A stretch of DNA of 64,000 bases from Argopecten irradians (GCF_041381155.1 NC_091134.1:61246902-61310901); one strand, 5' to 3'. Numbered from the stretch's first letter, positions 1 to 40,990 are shown. Notes: generated from the letters alone by a model not told the origin. Made by a program: numbers and translations.

Positions 1-663
1 CAATAGTTAGTTAGCAACTCTTTGTATAAAGAAGACAAATAAAACCAGGCTACTCCAATCGATTCATATTTCTATACGGCTTAAATTTTCAAAAATGGCT
101 ACTGGAAGATGGAAATTGTCCTCGGTTCACCACTGTCACCGGAACAGGCATTGAATAAGTTAATTTAAAATTCGAACCACAACTAATACTTTCAGAAACA
201 CAAAATTTGAAAATATGTATCATCATGAAAGTTATGCTTTCAACTAATTTGAATTTTTGAATAGTTGTATTCCAATATTTAGTCAAAGCAAACATTATCA
301 CCATCTTTTGTTACGTTATACGTATTTGAAATTGTACTTTACCAATGTATCAAATCTCTCGGAATATCTTTTATTTATACAACCTAGAGGAGTAAGCCAC
401 AAAGTCATAATCAAGTTTTGATGCTTATATACACAATTAGGATATTATAGTAATTTCGACAATCGATTCCAAATTTCATAGAATAAATATCATTTTGGAT
501 TCCTTTTGATTAATAATGGTAAGTTCTTTTTTTGCTATCGATATGCACGATGCATTTTGTTTTAATTCCAAGACGGCAAAACAATGAATTTAACCGAATA
601 GAACGAAGAAACGACTGTACGTTCTATATTTATCATGCTTTTATTGATAATATGACATTATAA

Positions 664-3600
664 TCAGGGACAGCCATATACTTCCACACGTAGACCTGGG
701 AGACCGCCGGTGTGCCATACTTTGGGATAGAAACGGACGAATCTGGCCTGTACTGGTGTCACAAAGTCGTGTTTTATCACCATATCGTAGCTTGAACTAC
801 CAGAAAACGTCTGCAATAGATCAATATAGAAATTTCAATGTGGTATTATTAAGAAACGAAAAATATTGATACTTTTTAAGCTTCTCGCTGCAAATATGAT
901 CATGTAGCTTTAACGTACGATAAATAGCTTCTTACAATAACGTCATACAAGCGCAAAATTAAACAATTTAAATTCTTCTGAAAACGTTTTTATCGCCTTA
1001 AGAAAAGAACAAGAAGCCTCTAACTTACGTTTCCGCCTGACACCGCCGCGTCCCGGAAGGTGTTGCCGTCTTGACTGTAGGTAACGGTGTAGGTTAAGGT
1101 GTAGTAGGAGGATGAACGGTAACCCTGTGTAGCCACGCCGTACACTGTCGATACGTTACCAAGGTCCACCTAATTAAATAATATACATCTATAATAGAAG
1201 TCAACGCCTTATGCTTTAGTTCGTATCAGAATGGGCGCTTTTATCCGTTGTTAACATGCTATGAAAATATCACATTACCCATACATTATAATCACTTTAT
1301 ATTTGGAAAATTGAAAAGAAGGCATCCACCGCAGCGCTTTTCTTTCTTTAAGTGTGACCACCGTGTCAACTTCCCTGGGTTCTACACTTACTGTCACGTT
1401 AATTTTGCGAAATTCCGTCATTCTCTCAAATTTATGAAATTTCATTTATTAGCCCCAGACAAGAAGATTAGATAACTGCATTATGGAAAACTGTTATAAA
1501 TTTAACCTGTAAGAAGGACCCGGTTCCATTCCCTACCCATCCTGTGCGTGAGTGCAGACGACCGTCGTGGGCATTGTACGTGTTGTAGGTTAAGTGTGCG
1601 GATAACTGGGCGTCAGGGATGTGCTTGACCGACTGGTCCACTCCGTATGAGTTCGTCGAACATACTGGGAAATACCATACAAAGTTCCATAAAAGAATAA
1701 AAGAATGAAAACATAAACGGTGTTAGTACCATAAATCTACCTGAAGGTAGCTCTCCACAGAAAATTACTGCATATTGATTTAAGGATGTACACCTCTGAG
1801 AAGTCAAAACTTTCTTGTATTAATTTTTTTCTGAAATATTTGTGTGTACATTCTTGCACGAATGTGGGGGTGTGTAAGGGTGAGTGTGTGGGTGGGAGTG
1901 TGTGGGTGTGAGGATGTGTGGGTGTGTGTATGTGTGTTTTTTATGTGTGCTCGCGAGTGATATGTGATTGTGAATACATATATATGTGTACCTGTATATT
2001 GTTTTATGTGACTGTGTACATTGTGTTGTAATGTAATTATGCAAAAATAAAAAAAAAATAAAAAAAATAAAAAAAAATTCTGATATAGAATTATCAAAAT
2101 TCATACCACAGTTCATACCATAGAAGAAAATGGAAGAAAAAAAATATGTCCGTGTGCTCGTTTTTTAACTATTGTCACTCAAAGTTAAATAAGTAATTTC
2201 TTCAAATTCCTGTATAGAAAATCTACTAAAAATAGAAATGTAATTTTTTGACAAAATTTGTAACTGGCAACTTGCTACAAGTATTGATAGGTTTTTTTAT
2301 CTATGTCGAAACGATACTTCAACGGGACTGAAACCTCAGAAGAATACACCCTTAATGGTAAAATTCATTCCTGTATACAAGGGAAATATAAATAATTGAT
2401 TGTTTACACTGGGAAGACATACAATTTTAAAGTAATTTAATCAGGGGATAACTCACTTGTTTCACATCTGTTCCCGCCATAGCCATGGACACACCTACAT
2501 GTGAATTGGTTTAGGTTATCCGTGCATGTTCCACCATGCTCACACGGCTGGTTTACGCATTGGTCTTGCTCTAAAAGAAAATCAAACTTTCTGTTTCTTT
2601 TTTGACGTTTTAACTACATAAGATAATATGTGAAATGACAACAAACCTTTTGCAAAAGAAATTAATACCAAGCAAAGAGTGTATTTAAAATATACAGACC
2701 CCGGATATTGATGCTGAAGGACCCGTCAGCATATTTTCCATGGACATCGGTGGCGCGAATTTCAAACTGGTAGGTTGCGTCTACATCGGGGGCAGTTCCG
2801 GATATCTCCCCAGTGGCGTTATTGAGTGTAGTACCTGGGGGCAGGTGGCCGGATACTAGTTCGTACACAATACGCTGTCCATCAGGATCCTGTGAAAAGT
2901 TTAATTGGTACAAAACATAAATAAATCACATAATTGTGTTGTAGCTCCCTATCATTTTTGATCGCCTGTTGTCTGTCTTTGTTTGGAAATGTTTTCGATC
3001 AAGATGTGTTGTATTACCATTACTTACCATAATTAAGTTTTAAACGATCACAAAACCCAGACCTGTTTTGTGAATTACCTTCGCTTCCACCGATACTGAG
3101 AAAGATTTCCCGGAGTTAAATGTACCAAGGGAACCATGCACTGATTGCTTAGTCCAGATAGGAGGAAGACTCTTCACTTTCTGAAAAAGAAAAACAATGT
3201 AATCGTCGCTATGGCCGCATTTGTATCTTATTGTATGCTGGTATGACATTTTGCTGTTTCAAAATCATTTTCGTGCAGCTGACGAATTTGACATTATCAT
3301 TTCCGAAGGGTATCGATGCAAACGTACCTTTGGTTTACTACCATGGCTAACACACGCCTTGTGAAATGTGAAAAATAAAAATCAGTCAAAAGAAATAAAA
3401 ATCTATAACTTTCAATGCGCTATATCTAGAAAGTACTGCTATAATACATTACATACGAAAAATAAATTGACATCATCAGTACTCAAGTGCTATACTTTCA
3501 CATACCTGGATGAACTTCCTGAGGTCCACTCCAGCTATATACACGGTTCCCCCAGCTCCAGGCTTCAGGATTACATCTCCACCCTGACCCGCCTGAAATT

Positions 3601-4104
3601 AATATTTTTATATAGACTTTATCATAAAAATAGCATGTTCTCATTAATTTGACTAAGGAAAATATGATTTATGATATTTAGGCAATGCGTTTGCGGAAAA
3701 CCAATTCGAGTTGAAATTCAGTGATACATTCCACCACCGGTAATGTAAACGTGCTAATATTTTATTTCACATAGAAACACAACTTAGGATTTATTCAGAA
3801 TATTTTTTTTCATATTTATTTATTATATATTTTCAAACACTAAATGATCAATTTAGAATATAATGATACACGTTTATAGCATACCTCAAATATAAGATCT
3901 CCATTTGGTTCTGAGGAAATGTTTACATTCGGGTAGTCCACTTGGAAAAAGCTGAAAAATTGAATGATATAAAACACAGAAACTAATAAAATGTCTTTGT
4001 TTTAGAAAACATCACTAGTATCCGCAATATAAAAGTTAAACACGGACTTACCTGGCTTTAACAAGTGCTGGTAATATCAGAAAAATAGCGTACATTGCCG
4101 CCAT
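664..4104 (-). CDS. Secreted cadherin-like(He_PIG)+EGF+discoidin(F5/8-C) protein, paralog 1 (352 aa). CDS complement(join(664..810,1029..1169,1507..1664,2457..2570,2700..2889,3079..3180,3506..3592,3885..3951,4052..4104))
   Basis: Hand-built exon chain. Every junction is GT..AG, phases are consistent and total 1059 nt. Start ATG is at 4104-4102 with signal peptide MAAMYAIFLILPALVKA, followed by GTAAGT. He_PIG exon: DPDGQRIVYELVSGHLPPGTTLNNATGEISGTAPDVDATYQFEIRATDVHGKYADGSFSINIR (overlaps ORF 2662..2913). EGF exon: EQDQCVNQPCEHGGTCTDNLNQFTCRCVHGYGGNRCET. Discoidin exons: ...GVDQSVKHIPDAQLSAHL..., VDLGNVSTVYGVATQGYRSSSYYTLTYTVTYSQDGNTF..., ...ARFVRFYPKVWHTGGLPGLRVEVYGCP*. Stop TGA is at 666-664 and a minus-strand AATAAA at 645-640. 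Confidence 0.65.
1850..2080. repeat. Low-complexity GT-rich (gtgtgtgg-like) tract plus (A)7-8T repeats, lying in an intron of paralog 1
   Basis: gggtgtgtaagggtgagtgtgtgggtgggagtgtgtgggtgtg... and aaaaaaaataaaaaaaataaaaaaaaa. Confidence 0.8.
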
Positions 4105-5509
4105 GATGGATTTCTAACTTTTCAGTAACCGGAAACTCTTTCTTTCGAAAGCTTTACTAACTCTACTTGTGTGGGATACACCATGAACTCATTTTAATAT
4201 CACCATGGTAACATAATGTGTGACACAGGTCTAGGACAAGGTTGGAGTTTTACCGTTATTTACTGTTCTAAAACCCAGGCTAATCCATGGATGTCATTCA
4301 TATTTACCTCGTGTTTCCGACTCCATGTAACCTAACAACGAGTCTGACAACGATGATACAGGCAGACTTTAAATATCTGTAATTAAACTTCCTCCTTGTC
4401 ACATGTCCTCTCCAACTATACGAACTAGTGCTTACTTAACTCATCTCATTTCACCTTGAACTATATTGACTAAACAAAATGTTGCAACATATATCTGTGT
4501 CATTAATTATTATGTATAGTAACACACCCAACACTAAAACAACGCCATACATTTTATTGTACCATTAGCTCATGCAGTTAAAGAGAACTTTATATTTTCC
4601 TGCTTTTAATAATTCTTTTTTTTTTCAATTATGGTACAGTGTATTTTTGTAGCTTATAGAAGTTCCTCTATCCCTCTACTTGGCTTAATTTACATGACAT
4701 GTGATCAGTTTAAATATCATTTAATACGAAGCCGTGTTTACCAATGCCATACTTGACACATAAGAAGAACTGCGATCTCGTATATATGTTTGACAATATT
4801 ACTGAGTCACAGTTGATTTACAAAACGCTTTTATTTAGTTGAACATTCTCGCATCGATCACACTACGATTACTATTATTAGTGAGACTAGAAAACGATGA
4901 AAAACGCAAAAAAGGTATTTTTTATATACAAAGAATTGAAATGAAAAAAGACACTTGGTTTCCTCATAAAAAATATTCAAAATAACAAAACTAATATTTT
5001 AACAAAATGCAACTTTTTGTAATTAAATTTGGGAAAAAAAAGTAAAAGAGGATATATTAGTCCGCTGCTTCATTGACGACATACCTTATAGGATTCTTGT
5101 AAAATCTGGGTGAAAGCACCATTTCCATTTCAAATTGTACAAGTTAGAATTAATCCTATAAAATTAATTAGAAGCACCTTTTGTATTGTACTATGGAATG
5201 TGGTATTGTTAGTCAGAAAAACCATGTTTAGACTTCATTGCATCTTATTTTACTTTAATACAAGTATTTGAATATTAAGCTTTTCATAATACATAGATTT
5301 TCCTCTTTCGATTGTTTTCCACATGATACCGATTCACCGCTTTATACCATCTGTAGGTAGCTGTATTTAACCAGGTAAAACTAGAGACACCAGGTTGACT
5401 TTCCAGAACATACGCTACACCATTCCTGTACCAACTTTAACAACACAAACATGCAGACATAACAGTGATTATAGACATCGAGCTTCCTTCGGTGACCGAA
5501 TCAGAAGAT
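4105..5509. promoter_or_regulatory. Shared 5' intergenic region (putative bidirectional promoter) between divergent paralogs 1 (-) and 2 (+)
   Basis: Start codons sit at 4104 (-) and 5510 (+). The ~1.4 kb AT-rich spacer has no long ORFs. Confidence 0.4.
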
Positions 5510-8500
5510 ATGGCATGGCATATTGGAATTATATTTATATTTTCAATTATTTTATCAGCTATTGATGGCTCCCCTGGCAAGTAAGTATTTTCAATAATGT
5601 CTTTCAATTAATCCATTTATAAAAAAATCATTGCCGTCATGGCGGAAATGACGTCACAGTCAATTTTGTAACGTTAAAATACAGTTATGCTTTACGTAAA
5701 ATACATCTGTTTATCTTTAAAAATCAAATGGATCGTTCATATATTGCAGCCTATTATTAGTATTTTTATGAACTGATATATCCAATTATCATTTTCCTTT
5801 TCATGACAATGTCGTTTTGTAGTGAAGATATCACATTTGATTATATTCTATGCTAAACTGAACTTTAAATAGAAATATACCTCATGGCAGTGAATGCTAG
5901 AGTATGTGGTATATGTTTGAATGCATAACTTTCATATTGAGATATTTGTTATTCTTATCTAAAAAGCGTTCTTCAGTTGGACTATCCTGATGTGACCATA
6001 GCTGCTCAAAAGAATGGAACATTTTTGGGGCAGGTAAAAGTGGTTTCAGATTAAAAGAAATACCATACTATTAAATTATCAGATGATTAAATAATCTGAA
6101 ATAATCAGGACCGATTTTACCGAAACTCTTAAAATTATACGAGGGTAAAAGGTAAAAGCTATACACGCAAGTAAAAATGCTTTCGAAACCAGGTGGATAT
6201 GAGTTAGCGTCTTAAAACCAATACAGATGTATATATTTTTTTAACGTTAAATCTGTTATTTATATATATGACACATTCCAACTATTACAAAAATGTTGTC
6301 ACGAATTTCTACTTTTTATTTGAAAAGCGTAAAATTGTCAATTTATTCCAATGTGTGTTATATTATTTAGTCCGGACTGAACGGCGACATCTACATACAG
6401 CCGAATAAGACCAATTTTGGAACCGTCTTCTTTGATGGTTATGATCTCCTAGAAATTATTGACGTATGTATATATTAAGGGAAACCAGTCAAACCTTATT
6501 AAATTGTAGCAGTCAATTAAAACCTACTTGAATTATTAGGTATTTTCTACATTGAATCATTAAAACATAACGATTATTTTGTAACTTTATTTGGGTTCAT
6601 CCAAATGCTTTTAAAATGATTTGCAGGTAGATAGCTTATGATATACCAATCGGCTAACAGTTGGCTTCCAATTGATAATCACAAGAACATATTTCAAAGT
6701 TATATGTGCTGTAACTGGGCGAACATTTTGACATTTTATTAATAACTTATTTTTCGATAATCTATTGAAAACCATACGGCTTAATGGGTCAAGCATATAT
6801 GATGTCTTTTAAACTTAAGTAAAACACAGAAATTACGCACTGTACAATTATTCTGCCTTTTTATGCCTTGTGCATATTAAGGAAGTAAATCGCCTGCAAA
6901 ACTCACATTACAATTACTACTAACACTGCAAAAATGTGAAATGAAACCTAATTTTGTTCTTTTCACTGAACTATACATGGATTTGTGTTTTTAAGGTACT
7001 GCCAAAAATCATTTTAGCTCCTATTTGTTCAATTACATTAATTATAAAATTGAAACTTATGCACTGAACATATTGTAATTATCAAAATGTTGGTAACTTT
7101 TGGTGGTGACTAACATAGATTAACTTATTGATTTATTTAGATCATTAACAACATGCCCCCTCTATGGCGGCTACACGGCCACACCGGTTACTCTGGCACG
7201 TTCGAGGGCGGCTCGGACATCAACATTCCACTGGAGGTGTTGGTGAGGTTTAGTATCCTGTTCATAACAAGCGGTGATGTATAGTAGAAAATTGAAAACA
7301 AGTTTTCTTCTTGATACCGGGAAAGATTTAACTTTCCATTACATTTTCCGTGTTCAGTATAGTTATATTGCTTTGCTTTATGGTGTTCCAATGAAATCAG
7401 CAAGAGGTGGCTAAATGTTGAATACCTTTTGTTTGAATATTTCAAATAGTTTCTTTCTCTGTTTTGATTTTGGATCTCCAGCTTCTGAATGCTTTTTTCA
7501 AGGAAAATTTATGCGTTTTTGCACAACTTTTCCGGTTAAGGTTAAGAGTGTTTTTTTCTAACATTGCAGGACCCCGAAAGTCAGGACGTACGATTTGAAC
7601 TTGTTGCTGGGAATTTCCCCATAGGTTTAAAAATAGCCAAAAATCCATGGAGAATCGAAGGAATTGTCCCGGACGAAGACGCCATTTTCACATTTACAAT
7701 CCGGGCACTTGATTCAAGTGATAAGTACGCTGATGCAGTGTTCAAGATAGAAACTCTAGGTAACGTAACTTATCAGTATCTCTGACATCGATATCAGAGT
7801 CTTAGAAAACCATTGCAGTTGATCAAACGACTCAAACTCGGTGGTATGTAGGAAGAAAATGGGATATATGTGTATAGATATATTGCTTAAATGATACCAA
7901 AACTCAAATGATCAAATTACATACTTTCATCAGTAATCAGTAAAAAAATAGTAAGAAATAAATTACCTCTAAATTGTTGTCAAGTGTTCATTGATGTGGA
8001 TTTTGTTTAGATTTTTGCTTCTTTGCATTGCTCATTGATTTAGAGGTAGACCAGTGCCTCCGGGAGATGTGTCATAACAATGGACAGTGTAACAATACCA
8101 ATACCCACCGTGGGTTTACATGTACATGTCCTACAGGATATGGCGGACCAACATGTGATATATGTAAGTATAATATTTCATTTGTATGTTAACTTTTACG
8201 TGTTCTTCAAACCAAATTGCGAAAAACATGTCTGCTCATTTGCATGTGTTTCAATGTTATTGGTTCCTATGACAAAACCTTAAAGTTCTTCGTTTAGTGG
8301 AAAATCTGGGCAGGCGGTGAAAATCATCCATACCTGTTCACTTCCGATTGGTGGAATCAGCATCAAGTGGTTGTTAAAGGCAGCAGTGTCACACCAATAT
8401 GGTGCCGCGATAATACTTCCTGTTGACTTGTTACTTAAACTATGTATTTGTATTGTAGATCCAAAGGAAGCAGTTTGAAGTTATAAAGATCTATGCATAC

Positions 8501-9743
8501 ATTAAATTAATACGCAAAAAGTATCAAGATTATATTTCCTTTTATTTATCTTTTTATATGTTAGCATTGCTAATACTATCCATTTATATCATATGTATAT
8601 CTAAAATCAAAACTAAATGAAACTTGTAGGATAATAAGGATTGATATCTGTGTTAATTGACGAGTATATTGCATCCACTTTCCCTTTATCTTGTTATATA
8701 CAGGACTAATTGTTATATTGTTTTTTACCCATTATGAAATGTTGTTATTCGTAACTTTTCCACTTTCTGTATTTCGACTTGTTTTAGCATGTACCAGGAC
8801 TGCCTTGGGGGTCGGGAATGCGTCCGTGGTTCCTGACGCACAAATGAGTGCTTACCTCTCCAGGTATTTGTCAAAGGCAGAAAACGGCCGATTGTCGAGA
8901 AGTGGGAACAATTGGTGCGGCGAAAACGCTAATTCGTGGCTACAAGTCGATCTAGGTATTAACACTGTAATTATACATAATCTATATATTTGTGAGACTT
9001 CACTATATATTTGTGAGACTTCACAGTTCATGTTTCACAAGCAGAATATTAGGCAACGGGGGGGGGGGTTGAGTGAATGGAACAGATTGTTTTCGTGTTT
9101 ACGAATTCCTTCCGTTTTTTAATTAGACAAAAAGAGCTACATATACTTGATTATAGATTAGCTTGAAAAGTAAAACTCATAATTCAGGTACCTAGAAAAA
9201 CCCCCATCAATTTCCTTTCCAGGTAGAAAAGCACAGATCTACAGAATAGAAACAGCTGGAGCCAACTCAACGTTCTACACAAAGACGTATACACTATCCT
9301 ACAGTACGACCGGAACCAGCTTTGACTTCGTCAACAGTGTGAATAGTACAACTGTACATGTAAGTATTGAGGTGTAAACACTTTATAACATATCATCATC
9401 AAACAGCTCTGGTAACTAACAAGGTTCTCATTCATGATGGACCGTAGCTTCATCAACACCGATGGTAGTGCCTTCTAACATTATCAGTTGTTTAAATGCT
9501 ATATACTGTTTATTTATAGTAAGGCGATGTCAAAAGAAGAGTAAGATAAAAAAAAGAATGGCACCTAATAAATCTTTACATTGTTATTTTGTTTTGTTAC
9601 AGACATTTCATGGATCTATTGGTGCAGAATACCAAACTCTGCCCGAACCTTTAGAAGCACGTTTTATCCGGATTCATCCGAAGACATACGACAGCCGATA
9701 CCACCCCTGCTTGCAGGTCGAAATGTTTGGCTGTTGGCTTTAA
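5510..9743 (+). CDS. Secreted cadherin-like(He_PIG)+EGF+discoidin(F5/8-C) protein, paralog 2 (362 aa). CDS join(5510..5580,5967..6033,6371..6463,7141..7242,7570..7759,8044..8163,8788..8955,9223..9359,9603..9743)
   Basis: ATG is at 5510 with signal peptide MAWHIGIIFIFSIILSAIDGSPG, followed by GTAAGT. All junctions are GT/AG with consistent phases, total 1089 nt. He_PIG exon: DPESQDVRFELVAGNFPIGLKIAKNPWRIEGIVPDEDAIFTFTIRALDSSDKYADAVFKIETL (ORF 7564..7785). EGF exon: EVDQCLREMCHNNGQCNNTNTHRGFTCTCPTGYGGPTCDI. Discoidin exons: SCTRTALGVGNASVVPDAQMSAYLSRYL...NSWLQVDLG, GRKAQIYRIETAGANSTFYTKTYTLSYSTTGTSF..., TFHGSIGAEYQTLPEPLEARFIRIHPKTYDSRYHPCLQVEMFGCWL*. Stop TAA is at 9741-9743 and AATAAA at ~9785. 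Confidence 0.7.
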
Positions 9744-11002
9744 CCGGACTTTACTCTGTTTGAACCGCATGTTTTATTTACAGAATAAACATAGAAGTAC
9801 GTGTAAAACAATTTTGAAGTATTTTTTGTCTTTAAAAGTCAGTTTTTGTTTCAAAAGCAACATAGTCAAACGAAACAGCTTCACATTGGACAAACAATTT
9901 CTGTACCATGATATTCATGTCTTATTTAAGTTGCATTATGGCATTGTTGTTATACTGCTTGAAGATGGTTGTATTTTTATACTAACAACAAGTCTTTCGT
10001 ATTTGAGAATAGAATCTTATTCAGATTTTACCTAAACTTCTAGTAAGTGGATAGCTCCCCGTGAAGACGCTTATTCTCCTGATGCAACATGTTCAATTTT
10101 CATTGTATTTTTTAAAATGTGCTCCTGTAGACACTGATCTATGGTTTTGTAAATTATATCAACATTTATTGGTTGACATAACCCTGTCATCCTCCATGAC
10201 CATTTGGCCTAATGTAATGATGGCTAGTTCATTATACCAATTTTTTTTCCTTTTCTCATCTAGATCACTTTACGACGCAAAACCCAGATAGGTCTTCCTA
10301 AATTAAAAATATCGTAGCGGAAAGCATATATTCCATTTTTTTAAAATTCAAATTTAAACAAATAATTATTTCCACTCTTGGACTTCAATGGGAAAAGGTG
10401 TTAACTGTGAGCAATATGAGATAGAGACAGGTTTTGATTTGTGGAGATGATTTCTTATGTAACCGTTGACGCCAACTATATTTCAATCGTCTTATATCTA
10501 TTCAACGAGATGCATGCGTATCTTGGGATTAATATGGGTTTGATTAATCAATTACTTATTCATGTTACTATTGAAGGACTAACTGTTAACATCTGTTTGA
10601 TATAGTTGTAGAAGTATATATAATATGATTGGTATAGAGTAGGTAATGATACTTTAAATTGAGAATGTTCTTGTGATAAAAATATAAGAATTGATAACAA
10701 ATTCAGCACCATTCTTTTACTCTATTTCCACCAGGAACAATTAACGCTTTACATAACTGATTCAGGTTCTATATAGTTAATTACACAAACTCACTTACTG
10801 ACATTAGTATGATATTATTTCGTAAAAGTTACGTTAAGTATTTTAGTTATAGTAAAACTGTGAGTTTGATATCCGATGCATTAACAGTTCTTATTTAAAA
10901 AAAAGACTTGAACACAGATTTGTTAGACTAAATCAAAATAGTTTTATTACTATTTAAATCAAAATTAAATCTGAAGACTTGATCTATACACCATCTGTGT
11001 TT

Positions 11003-14000
11003 CTACGAATTAATCTCGCATCCGTAAACCTCTACACGTAAGCCTGGGTGACTACTATACGTAACTGGCTTAAATCGGATGAAGCGTGCGTGGATTGGTG
11101 GAGTTAGTACGTGTTTAGTGATGGTGTTGACGTTGGTGCTGCCGTTATACACTTGAAACGAGAAAACATGGTGTCAAAAAGACTAAAATCTAAACAATAA
11201 AACCACAATAGAAAACAGAAAAAGGTTATCATAAAAATATGATCCATATATTTATTTGTTTGTTTGATTTATTAACGTCCTATTAACAACTATGGTCATG
11301 TAAGGACGGCCTCCCATGTAAGCAGTGTGTTGCGTGTATGTTGTGCGAGGTGCGTGTTTTGGGAGACTGCGGTATATTCATGTTGTGTCTTCTTTTATAG
11401 TGGACCTGTTGTCCTTTTTATAAAGCTATATCACTGAAGCATGCCGCCGAAGAGACCAAGCGACACAACCCACCCAGTCACATTATACTGACAACGGGCG
11501 AACCAGTCGTCCCACTCCCTGTATGCTGAGCGCTAAGCAGGAGCAGAAACTACCACTTTTATAGACTTTGGTGTGTCTCGGCCAGGGGACAGAACCCAGA
11601 GCCTTCCTCACAAGGGCGAACGCTCAACTCAAGGCCAAAAGTGAGGCGGTGCCAAGGGAGGCATTAGGAACGATAAAGTCGCCTTTTACGATCATGCAAT
11701 AGGGGCAGCAGGTACAATTATAATGCCCTACCTGCAATGATCCATTTAATTGCGTTAAAAGCTCAATCAAATATCTATCGATGGTCTCACATGTTGTTAA
11801 ACATGATTAATTAAACCTTTATCTGTGATATTGCACACTGCAATCCGTATGATAATGCAAACGATCAGGTTTAGATGCTTTAATGTCGTATCACAGTGTC
11901 AACCTACCATGTTGGATGTTCCGTTCTTTGTGTTGACGAAGGTATTTCCGTCAGAGCTGTACTGTAATTGGTAGGTTGATGTGTAGTAGGTCGAGGATGT
12001 GTAACCCTGGGTAGCGACGGCGTGAACATCCATAACGTTCCCGAGATCAACCTTATTGAACAATAGATTTCAGTCATTATACCTTATTATGACATCAGCA
12101 ACTGATAATGTTAACGAACATTGAAATATTACCACTTGAAAAAACATTGTCAACGTATTCTATTTCCATTGAAGGACGTGAATTGCAAGCATGTTTTGTT
12201 TGAGGCGCACGACAATGAAACATCATTTTCATTTTAATAAACTCATATAAATACTTTATCATACGAGATTATCAGATCAATACATATAACCAAGAAAGTG
12301 TGTTCTAGCGTATTCAGCATTAATTAGTAACCTGTAACCAGGATGCTGTGTTCTGACCAATCCAGCCTTGTGGAGCATTCAGCCGTCCGTCCGAAGCAGG
12401 ATGGTCTCCATACGAGTAGTGAGCAGACATCTGGGCATCGGCTATCTTCTTACTACTCTGGTCCACACCAAAGGCGCGGCTCTCACAATCTGGTACAGAT
12501 TAACACTTTTGTAAAAGTAATTGTTATCCAAAATTAAAAAAAAACTAATTGGAAAGATATCTTCAGATAATTACAATCAATGTCAAACTTATTTTGGTTT
12601 GTGTTTTTATCATGCTTTTGGTCATTTAGCTATTAATTAGACAATTCCGCCATTTTCCTATAGTGACATAACGTTAATGCTTGATTGAGCAATCACAGTT
12701 GATAACACGGAATGTACAGGTTTTTATCCTGATGATATACCACCTGGCCAACGTTCCAGGTTATGGGCCTGACATTGGGCGCGGTACTTACTAGTAGCAC
12801 AAGTCGTCCCACCGTACGGACTCTGACAGGTACAGACAAAGCTGTCTATATCGTCTTTACAGGTCCCACCGTGACTACAGGGGTTACTCAGACACTGGTT
12901 CTTCTCTATCACAATGTTAAAGCATAAAATAATATATGTGAGTTATCAATATCAGCACAACGGAATTACATAACTTAAAATACTAATGTATACCATGACA
13001 CTACATACCTGAAAACTTCCGTCTTTGGTTTAATGAATATTGCAAATCCATTAATAAAAATCATTTATACATCAAATAACTTTCCAGAATGCTATATTAG
13101 TCACATATAATACATATCAAAATATTTTTCAAAGAAATATAATAATCCTCATCAACAGAAAGACTGCATGTCTTGGTCATATTACTGGATAAAATATAAC
13201 GCCCACAACCATAGTTTCGAAACATTCCAATAACATTTTTTTAATATAAACATGTTAAACCAACCTCTTGTGTCAATGGAGAAAATTTGGTCAGCGTATT
13301 TTCCGTGTTTGTCCGTTACTCGTATCCCGAATTGATATGTGGCATCTACATCAGGTGCTGTACCGGAAATCTGTCCAGTGGCTTTGTTTAGAACCACGCC
13401 AGGTGGCAACGCTCCCGATACTTTTTCATATTTGAGAGATCCTCCTTCAGGGTCCTACATGAAATATGTTTTTTTTTTCATTAGGTAGTGATTATCAATG
13501 AATAAACAGAAGAATATACTATTTTGATCTTTATCACATTGTCATTTATCGATATTATGTTGAAGTTAGTAAGTACAGTAAATTAAGAGTTTCAATGAAT
13601 CAGGTAAAAACGTATAACGGGGCGTTTTTCCTGATGTTTAATACATTTATATTACAAAAAACTGAACAGTTTAACTCACTTTCGAATTCATCACATTTTT
13701 ATTACGTACAGTATTTCAATGTGTGATGCCTTACCACAGCTTCTAGATTCAGTGATATCAATGACCCTCCAAGGAATGTACCCAGTGAACCGTGAACGGA
13801 TTTCAATTCCCAGACAGGGGGCATGCTGTTGACAACCTAAAGATGACATCAAATCTGTCACACAATAAGCTTGTAGGCATTTTCGAACCATTCAAAGGTG
13901 GATTTCTAGTAATTACCAAATGTGTTTTGAATACATCAAGTTCGCGAATGACAGAATACAAAAACTTCTTATAAAGTACGTTTCCGTGCTATTCTAAGTA

Positions 14001-15059
14001 AAATTTATGAAAGCTGTGAAATGACGACTATTAAAAAGTTTCAAGAAGCAACATGACTTTGAGCAAATATAAGGACATTGATTAGGTCTCATTAGCAAAG
14101 GTATATCATTTAATCATTCAATCGATATACGGTGACTGTTAAGGCATGACAACAATTAATTGATTATCAGCATTAAATATAGAGTGCATCATCGATTTAT
14201 TACCTCAAACAGTTTCAGTATGTCCGTTTTGCCGATGTAGACAGTGCCGTTACCAGTAGGTTTCATTATGATATTTCCACCTTGTGGCCCCGCCTATCAA
14301 ACAGCATAAAGTAAATCATTTGAAGTACTGTTACATCACGTTTTGAACACAACTTTATTGTTATATTAACGGTTCAATTTTATAAGAAGTTTCCTCTAAT
14401 TAGCCCATTCAAAAATGAAATATAAACTAAACAAAGAGCAGAGGATATTAAAACATGCATAATGTAAACACCTAAATTTGATTGGTCTATGTAGTTACAC
14501 TAAGAGTATTCACTCACCTCTACAGTGAGGTTACCACCTGTTTCTGCCGTTACCAGTACATTAGGATACTGTATCTCGAAAAAACTGTAAAATAAGACAC
14601 AAACAAGATACAGATAATCCAGGTAACTAACATAGCTAATAACTCGGTAAATCTTTCCTGCTTCTAAAATCTCCTTTTCGTTTTTTATATGAGGAAGTCC
14701 CTTCTTTGTTTGTTTTTGTTTTTTTAAATTTAGTTCCCGAATTTTAATACATTCATCGTTCATTAGTGATTTCTTTGAAATATCTTAAACGTAAACTAGT
14801 GTTCAAAGCAGTCGTAGCAGCTGTAATATGAAGTTATCGAACAATCTTAAATACAAAAACAATCAGGAATATTGAATTGTATGGAATATCGAGAAACTTA
14901 TTAAAAATTATTTCGAATAAAAATATTTTAATGCAAATGGATATAATGAGCTGAAGCTAAATACCTAAGACACGAAGTAATGACAATAAACGAAATTTAC
15001 CTTGCTAAGGAGTTAGGCAAGAAGAGCAGGAGGAGGTACGCTGTTTTGATGGCCGCCAT
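11003..15059 (-). CDS. Secreted cadherin-like(He_PIG)+EGF+discoidin(F5/8-C) protein, paralog 3 (358 aa). CDS complement(join(11003..11151,11904..12051,12332..12489,12792..12905,13265..13454,13735..13836,14204..14293,14518..14584,15001..15059))
   Basis: ATG is at 15059-15057 with signal peptide MAAIKTAYLLLLFLPNSLA, followed by GTAAAT. He_PIG exon: DPEGGSLKYEKVSGALPPGVVLNKATGQISGTAPDVDATYQFGIRVTDKHGKYADQIFSIDTR (ORF 13182..13409). EGF exon: [38 protein letters not shown] (ORF 12724..12912). Discoidin exons: NCESRAFGVDQSSKKIADAQMSAHYSYGDHPASDGRL...SWLQ, VDLGNVMDVHAVATQGYTSSTYYTSTYQLQYSSDGNTF..., ...ARFIRFKPVTYSSHPGLRVEVYGCEINS*. Stop TAG is at 11005-11003. The junction between the last two exons is the least certain. 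A weak GTTGAC donor was chosen because only it gives a phase-consistent acceptor. Confidence 0.6.
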
Positions 15060-16555
15060 TTTGTTTAGAGATGGTAAACTGTCCTGAAGTCGTAAAATGG
15101 AGAGTTCACCTACCATATGTTGAAATGTTTGGTTGGCCTAGATGGTCATATCACGTGACTGTATTGGTTACCAGGTACGAAATCTCTCATACACTCATCA
15201 ACATTCATTCAATAAACATTATCTTGTTTTGATGGTAATGCTAAATGATTGGTTTGCTTTTCATATTTGTGAACATTCTGTATAACATTCGATAACATTT
15301 CAAAAGATTGTCAAAGCAATATTGGTTTCTAGTTATGTCAAGTTATTTACATCATCAAGGAAATCATTTTTAAGTATATATCCAAATGGTAAAATAATCA
15401 ATAAATATAATGGCCATTTTATTGTTTTCATTGTCAACTCAACTAACCAAATTCAATAAATAATTCTGAATGCTTACAAGTTACAGCACATAAACCAACG
15501 CATCCTTTATAGAGAGATTGAATTTGATGGTTCAGACCCCGAGATTCCAATGATGTGTGTTTTGTGTATCTAGAGGACTTTCGTGAGTACACAACCATGA
15601 TAATAAATTGTAGCCGGAATGGATTACAATCAAATCCTTTAATAGCAGATACCCATGTTTCCAGACATGGCCTGGAATTGGGTCAGATTGCTCTAGGTGT
15701 GTCTGAGAATGACTTGTCAGGTAATGCACATTCGCTGCAACAGGAACATGCAAAGTCTATTAAAGTAAATCTGACCTTTATAAGTAGGATGTTTATACAT
15801 CTCCCCGGACTAGCCTAATTTTTAATAAATGTTCAAACCAAAATATGCTTTCATATATTTTCTACAATTAAGGATAAAAGGCTAATTTCTTGTTATCATT
15901 AAATAAACTATTTTTGAATTTATTATGATAACATTTTAGGATAATTATCACACCTTGTTCATTAACTTATCAGTACAAAACTCGAATACTTTGCGGTCTT
16001 GTAAACCTATCATAAAACTAACTTTCCATTTATTATTTTCAAGGGCTCCACACATGTGGTGTGCTAAATCACCACTGTTAGCAAAATTGATGAAACTCAC
16101 ATTACTCATTAATGAAACGTCACTACGAAAAACAATTTCAAATGTTTACAATGGATCTGCTCTTAAACTGAAAGTAAGCAATAAAATGTGCTAAAACGTC
16201 TAAACCATTGATGAAGACACCTTATTTGATATTGCTGCATTTAGTTGAAAAAGCAAATATACATGTATTTGGCTTCGTGAACAAATATATACGTCATATT
16301 CTTTTCTATCGAAACTTAAGTATTGAACAGTTAATTTGTAAAACATATAAAGGACAATACATGTATTCTAAAAACATACATCGTCGATTCATAGAAAGTA
16401 TCTGAGATCAGTTAAAATGATATGTCATAAACTTTCACAATCTTTTATATTAGAGGAGCTGTTGAAGGTGAGACCAGATGTTGTTTCCTTGGCGACAGTG
16501 GTATCTCTAGCCACTTCACGGAACCGCACTAAGCTGTGCGTGAGTGTAATTCAAC
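15060..16555. promoter_or_regulatory. Shared 5' intergenic region (putative bidirectional promoter) between divergent paralogs 3 (-) and 4 (+)
   Basis: Start codons sit at 15059 (-) and 16556 (+). Only short spurious ORFs lie in this region. Confidence 0.4.
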
Positions 16556-19500
16556 ATGGCGAACATGAACAGAATGTTTTCCACTTTGACGCTCTTGTTC
16601 CTTTTGATGCCAATTGCTGTTTTGGCCGCCACTGAAGAGTATGTAAGTTTTAACATATAATTTCATCCAAATTAAACCTGTAATGTTAGCACATGGTATT
16701 CATCTTATCAGCGGTATAAGTTTACTGTAAGCAGAAATGTAGATGTACTATCTAAATCACTGCTATATGATATGTATCGAACCATTGATAATTTTTTGAT
16801 TGCTTGAATTGTGTATGTCTTTATGATATATAACATATACCAATGGCGTTATAAAACACGTTATGCTTATCTAAAACTCCATAGATCATATTGTCACAAC
16901 AGTTACTTACTGAAAATCATCTCTGGATTACATATCTAAAGACTGCATAATAATCTATGCATTTCACTCATTGTGATGTCCTCTCAGTATTGACGATTTA
17001 TTTTATATTTTTAGCCCTTTAAAAGTGGATTATCCTAGTGTGATCGTTCACGCAAAAGACGATGGAAACTTCACTATGGTGGTAAGTGAGGTTATTAAAT
17101 AAGATGTATCACTATCCGTATGTTATTCTTACTTATGGACTTCTTAATATATCTGTGGTTTGATAATTCCACAGTCTATTACCATATATTTAAAAAAATA
17201 ACACGAACCATTTGATTGTTTTGCGTGTCATTTAACATTTTTTCATTTTTAAACATTTGGGCCGAAGGAATGCACAATCTTTACTTTCGATAAAGTGTAT
17301 TGTTAAAAAGCATATCGTCCATAGACGATTTGGGTTAAAATGAAAGTGTAGTCTGTTTTTTATAACATGATAATTTAACTATTTTATACAAGGACAAATA
17401 CTATCAAATAATCATTTCGGGTTTTAATTGATCAGCACTTATTCTGTATGTTAACAGTCTGGCTTCAATGGTGATATCAAGCTGTTACCTGGTGCCAACA
17501 ACACAGGGAGGGTATACTTCGAGGGCGAGGACTTACTCTACCTGTTTGAGGTAAGAGATTGTAAAGAATGTAACTTACCAGTAAGTTGTGTTCTGTTGGT
17601 GAACAGCCCTTTCACCGTTTTCCATTCGTCTGCAATAGAAAACACATTAGTTCATTAGAAAACTAAAACAGTTATCAAGACTTTTGTCAATTTAATTAAT
17701 TATTTATAAAACATGCAAAACATATTCATGTCTTCACCAAAAATGAACCAAATGTATAAATAATGTAAATCACTTGCGATAAAAATTATTAGAAATGTGA
17801 ATGTTACCAAACTTACAGATCAAAAATCATTCTCAGTCTTAATTATTTATAATATTGCCTTTTTGCGTGCAGATCATCCTTAGCCAGCCCCCTGTGTGGT
17901 CTGAGAACTCGCCGTTCGGACACATCGGCGATTATCATGGAGGGCAGAGAGTATTCGTTCAGTTGGAAGCAGTGGTATCCTCATTACTTTTCATACATTA
18001 AGTTAAACCTCTTTATGGTCATTATCAATAAACATTACTACTAAAAGAGTGATAATTGTATTTTGGTATGTTTTCGGAGGTATGGACACAGAATTGTTTA
18101 ATATAAATTATACAGATGTGTGTATGTCAATTCATTTAATTACGAAAAATATAGATATAAGCACTTCTCTTTGAAAATCATGAAAGGATACATTTTTTGA
18201 TGAGTCTGTTTTATGCCACTGACAAAACTAAAAGTTACAAAAGCAAGTGTATCGTTTCAAAACTAATGAAAATTTAATATTTCTTTTGATATGGTCAGGA
18301 TCCAGAAGGAGGCCACGTGACATACTCTGTGGTAGCTGGTAATCTTCCTCCAGGAGTAACACTTGATTCCTCCTTAGGTGAAATAAAGGGATTAGCTCCA
18401 GATGCTGACACAACCTATACTTTCACTGTCCGAGCTACAGACTCACAGGGCAAATACGCCGATAACGTTCTGCAAATGAAGGTTCGAGGTAAGACATACC
18501 CGATTAAACAATTAAAGATTTCAAACATTTAGAAAACCTGACCATGTGCTCCGAAAGAGTTAATGTCTATTATAATTTAAAATTTGGATATTTTTATTCA
18601 ATGGATTGAGTGGTCAAAAAGGCCCTAAGCATACATAGTCCTTTCATACGTCAACGTATTGTTTTCTTTCAATAGAGTTGATATTCATTGTTTTGTCCTG
18701 TTGATTCAGAAAAAAACCTGTTTTATTGTACATATTGTATAGCTCAAATCGATAAGCTACGATGATTGTGCCAATACATAGATAACAAATTTTAATACCA
18801 TTTTGATTCGTTGTTACAGGTAGTAATTCGTGTACACGTACCACCTGTAGACACGAGGGGATCTGTCAGGACCATGTTAATGACTTCTACTGTACATGTA
18901 TACACCCGTACGGAGGCAAAACATGCAACCTGGGTAATAGTTAGCCTTTTAATAATACAGTACAATCACTAAAAATCTAGCATTTTTTCTATTTCTAAGA
19001 AGAAAGCTTGTACAGGTAAACATTGATGACTGCGACTCGATTCCCCTTCGTAGTTTAAAAAATATCTGGCTGGCAACTCAATTTTGTCTTTTAGTTTGCG
19101 ATATCTTTCTACGTCTTTTCATCCTTCATCTAAGCCAGTGATGATGGTAACTTAAACTTATTAATATTTGTTATCAATTGTCATTGTTATGCATTGAAAA
19201 AGTTAATATTGATACTTATACATATATCGATTTACCATCCAAATACCGTATCTGACACATCAAGTTTTTGTTTAAGACTGCCGAAGTAATGGCCTAGGAG
19301 TTGATAGTAGACACAAGGTTGTACCTGACGCCCACATGTCAGCCTTCAGAACCTACAGCAGCTACCTGGCCTATAATGGCCGTCTGTACGGGTCGGGATG
19401 GTATGGAGAGGACAGCAAATCATGGCTTCAGGTCGATTTAGGTAAATACGGTAATAGTTGGTAAATGTAAAACTCCATTACGCACAATCAAATTTTAGTG

Positions 19501-20631
19501 CAAAATTGATTTTGAAAAAAATAGCGCAATGATTATTTTTACGCATTTACAACAAATTGCTCTATTAAACAAAAACTTTCTGGCGCGAAATGCGTTAAAA
19601 TATTATCATTACTAAAATATGCACGTTTACAGTAGGGTAGGCAAGTTGGTCAGTAGTCGTCTATGTATTCGTGATGGTTGGAATATATTTAGATTTTTAT
19701 TAAAATGATCAAGTATTTAGATACTTACATTATCTAATTGCCTAAATTCATTTATCAAGTAATAAGTATATTAACTGGTCACTTCATTTGCCTAATATTT
19801 GCGTAATTAGCTTTCCTTTAATGAAAACAAATTCATTGAAAGTGATATAATAATTATGAAATAACATCGGAGTATACAATTATCTTTGTCATTTACATCA
19901 CAAGTTAGTCATAGTATTTGTTAGTAACACAACGAGGATTTGACTTACAAAGTCATCTAAGAAATGAACATTCGTCTATTATCAAAGCAGTATGAGTCAT
20001 AATGCCATTGTGTCCTAATAGGAAACATCACACAAATCCATGGCGTCCAAATGCAGGGATGTAGCAGCTACTATTATACTACAAGGTTTAATCTGCAGTT
20101 CAGCGTCGATGGGAATTCATTCACTAATTACACCACTGACGGCGTCAACCCGAGGGTAAGAATGATAGTCAAAGCATCAATCAGGCAACACATCACATGT
20201 AGTGAACGACATTAAGGTATCCATATTATAGGTAAAGGTTGAAATGGATGCATAAAACCAAAGCAGTGTATTAGAAAGCAGAAATATTTTTTTTAATTTA
20301 ACGCTACTTTCTACTTATTCATTACGGCAGCTTTTAAGATTACCACGTCTCATTTTTTGAAGTAACTAGCGTTTTATATATATTTTAACCGTTACAGAAA
20401 TGAAGTGCGATTGATGCTTAATGGGATCTTTCAAAAAAGACCTGAGGTGAATATTGAATTGTCCTTGTTGATTTCTAGGTATTTTCTGGGTACAGTAATA
20501 CTAACAGCGTGTATACGTCGGCATTGGCCCAACCTGTAGACGCACGATACATCCGGTTTGTACCCACCAACTGGAACCACTCTTACAGACCTTGTATGAG
20601 GGTCGAACTTCAAGGATGCTACTACTTATAA
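16556..20631 (+). CDS. Secreted cadherin-like(He_PIG)+EGF+discoidin(F5/8-C) protein, paralog 4 (366 aa). CDS join(16556..16638,17015..17081,17458..17550,17873..17974,18299..18488,18820..18933,19277..19441,20022..20155,20479..20631)
   Basis: ATG is at 16556 with signal peptide MANMNRMFSTLTLLFLLMPIAVLAATE. All junctions are GT/AG with consistent phases, total 1101 nt. He_PIG exon: DPEGGHVTYSVVAGNLPPGVTLDSSLGEIKGLAPDADTTYTFTVRATDSQGKYADNVLQMKVR (ORF 18317..18532). EGF exon: GSNSCTRTTCRHEGICQDHVNDFYCTCIHPYGGKTCNL. Discoidin exons: DCRSNGLGVDSRHKVVPDAHMSAFRTYSSYLAYNGRLYGSGWYGEDSKSWLQVDLG, GNITQIHGVQMQGCSSYYYTTRFNLQFSVDGNSF..., VFSGYSNTNSVYTSALAQPVDARYIRFVPTNWNHSYRPCMRVELQGCYYL*. Stop TAA is at 20629-20631 and AATAAA at ~20657. 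Confidence 0.7.
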
Positions 20632-21750: not shown

Positions 21751-22400
21751 AGTCCCGTAACTCTTGCAAATATTGTCGGATTTTGACCAGTATCAAACCC
21801 ATCTGAGATCTCATTGATATAAAGTAATATACATAATTTGGTTGAAATCGGAGTATAAATACAAAAGTTATTGAGCGGAAACCAAGAAATTATCTGTTTT
21901 GATGATTTTAAGTTATTGAGCGGAAACCAAGAAATTATCTGTTTTGATGATTTTAAAGTTCCGTAACTCTTGCAAATATTGACGGATTATTACCAGTATC
22001 AAACCTATTCTAGATCTCATTAATAGCAAGCAATATACAACATTTGGTTAAAATCGGATAATAAATATTAAAGTTTTCCCACGGACCAAGAGATTGTCTG
22101 TTTTTACGGTTTTAAAGTCCCGTAACTCTTGTAAATATTAACGGATTTGGCCAGTATCAAACCAATCCGAGATCTCATTAATATAAAGCAATATACATAA
22201 TTTGATTGAAATCGGATAATAAAAACAAAAATTATCGAGCAAAAACCATGAATTTATCTGTTTTGGCGATTTCAAAGTTCCGTAACTCTCGCAAATATTG
22301 AAGGATTTTGACCAGTATCGAACCCATCGGAGATCTCATAATATCAAGCAATACACTAACTTTAGTTGATATCAAATAATGAATACTTAAGTTATCGTAC
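21751..22400. repeat. ~160-bp satellite, 4 copies. The first unit contains a 47-bp internal duplication.
   Basis: Units start with agt[c/t]ccgtaactct[t/c]gcaaatatt... at ~21751, 21956, 22114 and 22275. A duplicated aagttattgagcggaaaccaagaaattatctgttttgatgattttaa lies at 21857-21950. Confidence 0.75.
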
Positions 22401-34189: not shown

Positions 34190-34500
<311 letters not shown>

Positions 34501-40955: not shown

Positions 40956-40960
<5 letters not shown>

Positions 40961-40986
<26 letters not shown>

Positions 40987-40990
40987 GACA
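40961..40990. repeat. Poly(A) tract, ~29-30 nt
   Basis: A homopolymer a-run. It may be a retroposon 3' tail, but no element body was recognised. Confidence 0.6.

Follow-up and report, generated by a model that had tools for sequence, protein, structure and literature searches.

Collagen IV genes are found in head-to-head pairs (COL4A1-A2, A3-A4 and A5-A6) that represent two subfamilies and were multiplied by pair duplication. The partners of a pair co-assemble into heterotrimers and use a short bidirectional promoter. With respect to protein architecture, the closest described systems are MFG-E8 (lactadherin) and EDIL3 (Del-1), which carry 2-3 EGF domains, one with an RGD motif, upstream of two tandem discoidin domains (C1-C2), and which bind phosphatidylserine by hydrophobic C2 spikes. 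Here we compare with both systems a locus of the bay scallop Argopecten irradians, contained in a stretch of 64,000 nt (the window; all positions refer to it). We consider the whole account given below, i.e. a conserved cluster with a gene pair duplicated as a unit, encoding secreted binding or bridging oligomers under shared regulation, to have a probability of about 0.6.

Our analysis shows that positions 664-20631 are a portion of a conserved molluscan gene cluster and harbor four intact, transcribed paralogues (spliced contigs are available for g2 and g4). A preceding interpretation of the DNA without database searches (the sequence-only reading) had claimed four paralogous genes, and four nine-exon genes were indeed rebuilt; the stop codons of the outer genes, 664 and 20631, are the exact limits it had given. 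The count of four refers to the genes inside the window. The four paralogous exon chains are confirmed as real, well above what chance would yield. When six-frame segments were compared all-vs-all by blastp, every exon found three counterparts (E 1e-5 to 1e-31), and no further matches to the four chains were seen within the window. At the DNA level the two halves of the cluster share next to nothing (one 130-bp match, 73%), and the duplication is therefore old, not recent.

The models form two divergent pairs, g1(-)/g2(+) and g3(-)/g4(+), as had been proposed. Gene g1 (A-type, minus strand, 664-4104 from CDS start to stop, 352 aa, all introns GT-AG) has its exons at 4052-4104, 3885-3951, 3506-3592, 3079-3180, 2700-2889, 2457-2570, 1507-1664, 1029-1169 and 664-810 (53, 67, 87, 102, 190, 114, 158, 141 and 147 nt). 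Its partner g2 (B-type, plus strand, 5510-9743, 362 aa) comprises exons at 5510-5580, 5967-6033, 6371-6463, 7141-7242, 7570-7759, 8044-8163, 8788-8955, 9223-9359 and 9603-9743 (71, 67, 93, 102, 190, 120, 168, 137 and 141 nt). The divergent 5' intergenic region between them (4105-5509), previously put at 1.4 kb, measures 1405 bp from ATG to ATG. In the second pair, g3 (A-type, minus strand, 11003-15059, 357/358 aa) has exons at 15001-15059, 14518-14584, 14204-14293, 13735-13836, 13265-13454, 12792-12905, 12332-12489, 11904-12051 (or 11908-12051) and 11003-11151 (or 11003-11152), with lengths of 59, 67, 90, 102, 190, 114, 158, 148 (or 144) and 149 (or 150) nt. Across a divergent 5' region of 1496 bp from ATG to ATG (15060-16555) lies g4 (B-type, plus strand, transcript 16454-20673, CDS 16556-20631, 366 aa) with exons at 16556-16638, 17015-17081, 17458-17550, 17873-17974, 18299-18488, 18820-18933, 19277-19441, 20022-20155 and 20479-20631 (83, 67, 93, 102, 190, 114, 165, 134 and 153 nt).

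The supposed identical nine-exon plan with matching intron phases was recovered in all four genes (2,0,0,0,1,1,x,0, where x is intron 7; introns GT-AG), save for intron 8 of g3. Here GT-AG borders are obtained in phase 1 only, which lengthens the product by a Val to 358 aa; to arrive at the 357 aa of RefSeq, the intron would have to be in phase 0, with borders that are GT..AA (or TA..AG) in our sequence. Accordingly, the g3 product differs from the Argopecten irradians RefSeq prediction XP_069142044.1 by this Val alone, where exons 8 and 9 join; the products of g1, g2 and g4 are identical to XP_069108507.1, XP_069108516.1 and XP_069142053.1, respectively. The exon chain of g4 agrees exon for exon with a spliced transcript: the 1252-nt Logan contig SRR19746225_16632 falls into nine blocks (98-100% identity) which coincide with the exons, and it adds a 5'UTR of at least 102 nt and a 3'UTR of at least 42 nt, placing the transcript start at or before 16454. 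The entire g2 product is encoded on a 1215-nt Logan contig (2 substitutions, 5' extension), which therefore represents spliced RNA.

The deduced proteins (~355 aa) are of the soluble type, with no transmembrane segment and no C-terminal tail past the last Cys, ending 1-5 residues beyond it. Their hydrophobic N-termini, with VKA|S, SLA|S or VLA|A at the end, derive entirely from exon 1; these sequence features predict secreted soluble proteins. Exon 1 encodes the signal peptide, exons 2-3 a family-specific module of ~55 aa, exons 4-5 the He_PIG or dystroglycan-type cadherin-like (CADG) domain with its Ig-like fold, exon 6 an EGF domain and exons 7-9 the discoidin domain, and the proposed order of signal peptide, He_PIG-like, EGF and discoidin parts held in the models and in Pfam. 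With Pfam, all four proteins contain a single F5_F8_type_C stretch (PF00754, 65-80 bits, cut-off 28.2). The He_PIG assignment (PF05345, cut-off 24) was reproduced in g1 (49.5 bits), g3 (43.1) and g4 (42.5), where weaker Big_9 and Cadherin matches cover the same stretch. In g2 Pfam recognized no such domain, yet its sequence can be aligned all along and shares 37-44% identity with the other three in this region; several other B-type proteins also fall under the threshold. EGF (PF00008) exceeds its cut-off of 21.5 in g1 and g3 and reaches 17.8-18.4 in g2 and g4. The six EGF cysteines (C174, C179, C185, C194, C196, C205) are invariant in the family, and the cysteines closing the discoidin domain (C209 and C353, g3 numbering) do not vary among 35-36 sequences. 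In the AlphaFold model of the g3 protein (mean pLDDT 81.5) the Ig, EGF and discoidin parts reach 85-97, the He_PIG stretch is confidently modelled as a beta-sandwich, and one discoidin domain is seen. No description of the He_PIG, EGF and discoidin combination was found in the searchable literature.

The best sequence and fold matches of the discoidin domain are neuropilin b1 and the C domains of factor V/VIII, with which only the fold is common. Foldseek matched the g3 domain to neuropilin b1, factor V/VIII C2 and lactadherin C2 (target-normalised TM ~0.85, rmsd ~1.8 A), which together with the AlphaFold model confirms the discoidin fold. In sequence (residues ~208-357) the domain retrieves neuropilin-1 b1 and the C domains of factor V with E ~1e-33. 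In the HMMER alignment, a gap and an Asn of g3 stand opposite the neuropilin-1 pocket residues W301 and D320, so that a C-end-rule peptide pocket has not been retained.

The N-terminal module is encoded at 3506-3951 (-) in g1, 5967-6463 (+) in g2, 14204-14584 (-) in g3 and 17015-17550 (+) in g4 (exons 2 and 3 including the intron). Its consensus, SFFxIxYPxVxVxAExxGNLTxxAGxGGDIxxxPGxxGTVYIxGxDLLKLIE, is conserved across the family, and a Pfam search as permissive as E<=10 brought up no family for it. A search with the module matched about ten clusters of the family (all six that were looked up are molluscan) and a few dozen short fragment peptides, but also upward of 100 repeat proteins, whose single repeats score up to 22 bits; those containing 3-23 repeats reached E 1e-10 to 1e-26 in a library of 1.8 billion. 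The module core GNLTxxAGxGGDIxxxPGxxGTVYI aligns with single copies of this metagenomic repeat (NGNIxLxPNGTGxVxI), which itself has no Pfam family and whose proteins match PHROG virion-structural families. In contrast to the arrays of the phage-like proteins, the scallop module is a single copy. The match covers ~28 Gly/Asn-rich, compositionally simple residues and nothing indicates common descent; being so short and biased, it could reflect convergence. A conserved 55-aa module outside Pfam with a core resembling a phage virion repeat is a new point. In the g3 AlphaFold model its pLDDT is low (46-59), which may fit folding in the oligomer only, and would equally fit an unstructured or poorly sampled region. 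In the hemichordate Ptychodera flava, where several copies of the family occur on one 47-Mb contig, the module helix is enlarged to a longer heptad-like segment.

The claimed division into two subfamilies (genes 1 and 3 versus 2 and 4) is borne out by exon-3 length and by intron 7, which in the A-type genes g1 and g3 is in phase 0 before VDLG and in the B-type genes g2 and g4 in phase 1 within the Gly codon of VDLG. Trees were built by simple NJ with a single distant hemichordate sequence as the root; in these, clade B received 86-93% and clade A 59-63% bootstrap support; clade A contains the g1 (96-99%) and g3 (100%) clades, clade B the g4 (80-98%) and g2(+g5) clades. The g1 clade and the g3 clade each include pteriomorph and heterodont species. 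Every A gene is head-to-head with a B gene, and in every species examined the partners are one A and one B, never alike. The gene order is g5(+) g1(-) g2(+) g3(-) in Pecten, g1-like(-) B(+) g3-like(-) g4-like(+) B(+) in Crassostrea virginica, g4-like(-) g3-like(+) B(-) in Mytilus, B(-) g1-like(+) in Dreissena, B(-) A(+) in the abalone Haliotis and A(-) B(+) in the chiton Liolophura. In the latter intron 7 interrupts the A gene at LQ|VDLG and follows DLG in the B gene, i.e. the type-specific intron-7 positions are kept from chiton to scallop. Since the A/B split, the intron positions and the pairing are all present in chiton, abalone and bivalves, they date to an early mollusc. Pecten maximus, whose g1 orthologue is 73-85% identical to the g1 exons at the DNA level, possesses the fifth paralogue g5, a further B copy in scallops; going by this species, a g5 counterpart would lie just left of our window. 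The sequence-only reading had suggested that an ancestral pair was duplicated as a unit, and the phylogeny, the gene order in six molluscs and the g1-B-g3-g4 order and orientation common to the scallop window and the oyster all support it. On this reading an A/B pair gave rise to g1-g2 and g3-g4 before the pteriomorph/heterodont split.

One could alternatively assume that each head-to-head pair had an origin of its own, through inverted duplication of a single gene or through rearrangement at a later time. We regard this as quite improbable, since a local inverted duplication predicts that partners are closest relatives, which they are not, and it leaves aside the consistent A plus B partnership, the type-specific intron 7 from chiton to scallop and the well-supported grouping of B-type genes. 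It is true that the identity between g2 and g4 is just 38% and does not exceed that of g2-g3 or g3-g4 (38-42% to g3), so that by raw identity neither is the other's closest relative; their grouping draws on the multi-species tree, the common intron position and a common extra Cys ('PC'). Support for clade A is also modest, and the cluster has been remodelled: Pecten g5 is tail-to-tail with g1, and in the oyster the partner of g1 is a g5-like gene while a g2-like gene sits after g4. Duplication of the pair as a unit remains our preferred explanation.

As to the proteins, the names MFG-E8 and EDIL3 were given in RefSeq because of the EGF plus F5/8-C arrangement in common, and the sequence-only reading had noted the same likeness. 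It stands as far as two domain types are concerned: the scallop proteins, too, would be secreted and have EGF upstream of a C-terminal F5/8-C domain with the conserved N-/C-terminal disulfide, and lactadherin C2 is among the Foldseek matches. The domain features that define MFG-E8/EDIL3 are lacking, however. Each scallop protein has a single EGF and a single discoidin domain, RGD is absent in 35 of 35 family members, MFG-E8 and EDIL3 have no counterpart of the He_PIG domain and the N-terminal module, and no vertebrate orthologue was found in database searches. In sequence, neuropilin-1 b1 and factor V (81-120 bits) are far closer than lactadherin C2 (58 bits), and the loop equivalent to the membrane-inserting first spike of factor V/VIII is shorter, polar and fails to align with factor V C2. 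Membership in MFG-E8/EDIL3 is thus largely refuted by domain counts, RGD and orthology; that the genes are molluscan orthologues bridging phosphatidylserine membranes to integrins, e.g. as opsonins or in vesicle-mediated calcification, is very improbable, and on sequence grounds we hold the automatic names to be misleading. A structural or adhesive role in molluscan secretions (shell matrix, byssus, mucus) instead of soluble recognition or bridging is improbable, too. The proteins are secreted, modular and Cys-stabilised with extracellular adhesion-type domains only, the family spans shelled molluscs including the chiton, and FA58C plus EGF domains occur in the sea-star adhesive protein sfp1 (PMC12817120) and in an abalone shell-matrix entry (PMC6003135). 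Against such a role, no protein of this architecture was found in the proteomic literature located, the four proteins have none of the low-complexity or repetitive regions typical of matrix proteins, and the family is present in the shell-less Ptychodera flava.

We favor secreted binding or bridging oligomers. The proteins would act extracellularly as ligand-binding or bridging proteins, with the discoidin domain supplying the binding site through its spike-equivalent loops. These loops are polar and Tyr/Ser-rich (HYSYGDHPAS, GYTSSTYY), which suggests a glycan or protein ligand and not membrane insertion. Oligomerisation, and with it avidity, would come from the N-terminal module, in which an amphipathic helix follows a single tail-fibre-like beta repeat; the secreted proteins are probably oligomeric.

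The long retention of the divergent pairing would be explained by shared regulation of the A and the B gene. Both 5' regions exceed 1 kb between ATGs, while the bidirectional-promoter criterion (<1 kb) counts from TSS to TSS; in oyster and chiton the gene calls of the two partners end ~500 bp from each other. Compared with Pecten, only the ends of the g1-g2 spacer are conserved, ~240 bp by the g1 ATG (to 4342) and ~67 bp by the g2 ATG (from 5443), and the middle is not. A further possibility, unlikely as it stands but worth stating, is that A and B are obligate partners of one secreted hetero-oligomer formed via the N-terminal module, and that the need for balanced co-expression keeps them paired. 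If true, the A/B pairing would have been maintained since before the divergence of chitons, gastropods and bivalves, and a collagen-IV-like genomic logic would exist in a previously undescribed extracellular discoidin family of molluscs and a hemichordate. The likeness to collagen IV lies in two ancient paralogue types, one of each per pair, that diverge from a shared 5' region and were duplicated as a unit; in contrast to the short collagen IV promoter, the spacers here span 1.4-1.5 kb and are conserved at their ends only.

Four related nine-exon genes lie between positions 664 and 20631 of the window, which is AT-rich eukaryotic DNA with a G+C content of ~33%. They were detected by comparing each six-frame stop-to-stop segment of the window with all others. 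Exon-sized segments fell into four co-linear, mutually matching chains, two on the minus and two on the plus strand (E 1e-5 to 1e-31), and this comparison found no additional copies past 20.6 kb. From the frames of the matching segments and GT/AG sites four complete nine-exon open reading frames were built, namely g1 (664-4104, minus strand, 352 aa), g2 (5510-9743, plus strand, 362 aa), g3 (11003-15059, minus strand, 358 aa if splicing is strictly canonical) and g4 (16556-20631, plus strand, 366 aa). The A-type genes g1 and g3 each stand head-to-head with a B-type gene, g2 and g4, respectively, and the start codons are 1405 bp (g1-g2) and 1496 bp (g3-g4) apart. Exon 1 is phase 2 in all four genes and codes for the signal peptide alone. 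Exons 2-5 measure 67 nt, 87/93/90/93 nt (g1/g2/g3/g4), 102 nt and 190 nt, and exon 6 (114-120 nt, phase 1/1) is followed by three discoidin exons. In g1 and g3, intron 7 splits Q from V in the motif LQVDLG; its position in g2 and g4 is 10 nt downstream, within the Gly codon. The structural interpretation of the sequence-only reading proved correct: the four genes could be rebuilt as it described them, and its exon lengths and phases agree with our models, intron 8 of g3 being treated separately below. Three mutually matching open frames opposite He_PIG exons (2774-2917 and 13336-13485 on the plus strand, 18298-18414 on the minus strand) were rejected as genes; they represent antisense readings of conserved coding sequence.

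A protein search assigns the sequence to Argopecten irradians, the bay scallop, in whose public annotation all four genes are already predicted, under misleading names. Our translations of g1, g2 and g4 are identical, residue for residue, to XP_069108507.1, XP_069108516.1 and XP_069142053.1, and the only difference between g3 and XP_069142044.1 is an extra Val where exons 8 and 9 join (sites 11904-11910 and 11151-11155). The RefSeq product of g3 needs a phase-0 intron 8, which reads GT..AA (equivalently TA..AG) in the window sequence; the sole GT-AG solution is phase 1, lies 4 nt downstream and adds the Val. Since the Ylistrum orthologue of g3 has the shorter form, phase 0 is probably the true state of this junction. 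The odd intron may come from genuine non-canonical splicing, from polymorphism or from an assembly difference. Matching intron phases, as claimed from the sequence, hold for g1, g2 and g4, and for g3 only if the phase-0 intron 8 is real. The same intron harbors a non-coding element of ~480 bp (11255-11736) with 72-76% identity to three separate sites within the Pecten maximus loci; it is probably a copy of a dispersed repeat or part of a transposable element, kept across scallop genera. At the transcript level, a 1252-nt contig from run SRR19746225 maps to the window in nine blocks (98-100% identity), all of which coincide with the exons of g4, and extends this gene by a 5'UTR of at least 102 nt (from 16454) and a 3'UTR of at least 42 nt. 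The g2 product is also carried by a 1215-nt contig, and since this is far below the 4.2 kb of the gene, the contig represents spliced RNA.

A recent segmental duplication as the origin of the two pairs is rejected, for the two halves of the cluster are alike at the protein level only. At the DNA level, the comparison of 0.6-10.8 kb with 10.8-21.5 kb left an almost empty dot-plot with a single weak match of 130 bp (73%), which argues that the paralogy is old. Full-length relatives occur in the scallops Pecten, Mizuhopecten and Ylistrum, in oysters, Mytilus, Mya, Mactra, Ruditapes and Dreissena, in the protobranch Solemya, in abalones and in the chiton Liolophura. The hemichordate Ptychodera flava also has a full-length relative of the same architecture (~33% identity), with at least three copies on a single 47-Mb contig; remoter matches have the discoidin domain alone in common. 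In bootstrapped neighbour-joining trees rooted with Ptychodera, the molluscan sequences form two clades, A (59-63%) and B (86-93%). Clade A comprises separate clades for g1 (96-99%) and g3 (100%), both with pteriomorph and heterodont bivalves, and clade B comprises a g4 clade (80-98%) and a group (51-88%) of g2 with g5, a fifth paralogue known from Pecten maximus. Raw identity is 53% for g1-g3 and only 38% for g2-g4, and B-type genes evolve faster. The unity of the B-type follows from the tree, the common intron position and a common 'PC' ahead of the last strand; the corresponding residues of A-type proteins are 'PG'.

Gene order in other molluscs places the duplication of the A/B pair deep in time. 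The order is g5(+) g1(-) g2(+) g3(-) in Pecten maximus, g1-like(-) B(+) g3-like(-) g4-like(+) B(+) in Crassostrea virginica, g4-like(-) g3-like(+) B(-) in Mytilus, B(-) g1-like(+) in Dreissena, B(-) A(+) in Haliotis and A(-) B(+) in Liolophura. In every case among the species compared, head-to-head partners are one A and one B gene, and C. virginica has two A/B pairs in the order and orientation of the scallop. The Liolophura genes also differ at intron 7, which lies between Q and V of LQVDLG in the A gene and after DLG in the B gene. The simplest history would be that an early mollusc already had an A/B divergent pair, that this pair was duplicated whole ahead of the autobranch radiation, and that local changes among B copies (g2/g5) came later. 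The A/B pairs across molluscs thus support the earlier proposal that an ancestral pair was duplicated as a unit, and push its date far beyond what the window alone suggested. Going by molluscan divergence times, the A/B pairing would then be over 500 million years old. If this reading is right, the strict head-to-head arrangement shared by chiton and scallop clearly exemplifies microsynteny of great age. Pecten g5 (354 aa) lies tail-to-tail with g1, ~1.3 kb past the g1 stop codon, and its upstream neighbour, 8 kb off, is a DUF7869 gene. An Argopecten counterpart would sit just left of window position 1, and with g5 present in Pecten the scallop cluster is probably larger than the four genes in the window. 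In the C. virginica locus record, a 495-aa prediction (1-5149, plus strand) joins a Peptidase_C78 domain and a B-type member in one protein, probably a gene-model merger and not a true architecture.

The remainder of the window holds other features. Three paralogues without introns stand in tandem at 37266-49750 (minus strand), two with intact reading frames (42812-44809 and 47732-49750; 665 and 672 aa) and one split (38502-39275 plus 37266-38306). In each, a Mab-21 nucleotidyltransferase domain and a Mab-21_C domain precede ~300 aa of helical C-terminal sequence that matches TPR weakly; the genes look like the cGAS-like receptor (cGLR) type. At 50306-64000 lie at least six tandem copies, 98-100% identical, of a ~2,235-bp unit, and the array continues past the right window end; a satellite, an rDNA-like array and a gene array are the candidates. 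Shorter repeats comprise a 160-bp unit x3 (21913-22396), a 54-bp minisatellite (x14.8, 97% matches; 25707-26504) and a (CATA)n microsatellite of ~76 units (34200-34506).

The domain calls made from motifs alone stood for the most part in Pfam searches. F5_F8_type_C was found in all four proteins (65-80 bits) and He_PIG in g1, g3 and g4 (42-50 bits); g2 gave no He_PIG match though it aligns throughout, and the EGF score of g1 and g3 passes the cut-off, which g2 and g4 narrowly miss. The six EGF Cys and the two Cys closing the discoidin barrel are invariant among 36 family members. An AlphaFold model of g3, computed with a 35-sequence alignment, reached a mean pLDDT of 81.5, with 85-97 in the Ig-like, EGF and discoidin parts and 46-59 in the N-terminal module. 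Each of the four proteins starts with a hydrophobic signal-like segment ending in a small-residue cleavage motif and ends 1-5 residues past the final Cys, which on sequence grounds indicates secreted soluble products. RefSeq also lists a g4 isoform X2 (XP_069142062.1; 318 aa), which starts at a Met just ahead of exon 3 and has neither the signal peptide nor the first half of the N-terminal module, so that this form, if real, would not be secreted.

The N-terminal module itself (exons 2-3) comprises ~55 conserved residues with the consensus SFFxIxYPxVxVxAExxGNLTxxAGxGGDIxxxPGxxGTVYIxGxDLLKLIE. Searched in isolation, it matched no Pfam family at a cut-off as loose as E<=10, and a PHROGs search with g3 gave no match. 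A profile of the module, searched against 1.84 billion representative proteins, matched ~10 family clusters (the six that were checked all come from molluscs), a few dozen short fragment peptides and more than 100 large metagenomic proteins, each with 3-23 copies of the repeat NGNIxLxPNGTGxVxI. Single metagenomic repeats score up to 22 bits against the module core; their proteins belong to no Pfam family and match PHROG virion-structural families. The core seems to resemble a fibre-type beta repeat, a likeness that does not imply homology, and is followed by a short amphipathic helix, lengthened in Ptychodera to a heptad-like stretch. From this likeness and the helix, a role in oligomerisation is the most economical guess. 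If the overall reading is right, the module is an unannotated conserved element that merits a domain definition.

RefSeq and UniProt label family members as EDIL3, lactadherin-like, MFG-E8, factor VIII-like, neuropilin-1 or contactin-associated protein. Foldseek matched the g3 model in the PDB to neuropilin b1, the factor V/VIII C domains and lactadherin C2 (target-normalised TM ~0.85, rmsd ~1.8 A), and the closest solved domains by sequence are neuropilin-1 b1 and factor V. Identity with MFG-E8/EDIL3 is nevertheless rejected: the scallop proteins have a single EGF and a single discoidin domain, and RGD is absent from all 35 family members checked. Conversely, MFG-E8 and EDIL3 are without the Ig-like domain and the N-terminal module. 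Factor V/VIII C2 domains carry a loop with a membrane-inserting hydrophobic pair, whereas the scallop equivalent is short, polar and not alignable with factor V C2. A neuropilin-like C-end-rule pocket was set aside because its key positions, the ones binding C-terminal arginine in neuropilin, are not conserved in the alignment. In the literature we found neither a paper describing this domain architecture or these genes nor a functional study of the family. Judged by its sequences, the family is a distinct, uncharacterised architecture under wrong labels, and 'EDIL3' or 'MFG-E8' in bivalve transcriptome or proteome lists would then denote a widespread mislabelled molluscan family. The recognition of this family, the A/B pairing from chiton to scallop and the undefined N-terminal module are new here; current understanding is not overturned.

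Our results reveal modular proteins, secreted to judge by their sequences, whose genes are conserved in A/B pairs. They could act as extracellular binding or bridging factors, in which a glycan or a protein would be the ligand of the discoidin domain and the N-terminal module would supply multivalency. The divergent arrangement might persist through shared regulation or through a need for joint production of partners, and the strict A/B pairing, if read correctly, suggests either shared regulation or co-assembly. Between Argopecten and Pecten the g1-g2 spacer is conserved at its ends only, which counts against shared regulation of this pair. In the boldest reading, the A and B products might form a hetero-oligomer. 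Collagen IV genes are arranged in head-to-head pairs and provide an analogue for the scallop A/B pair and its putative hetero-oligomer.
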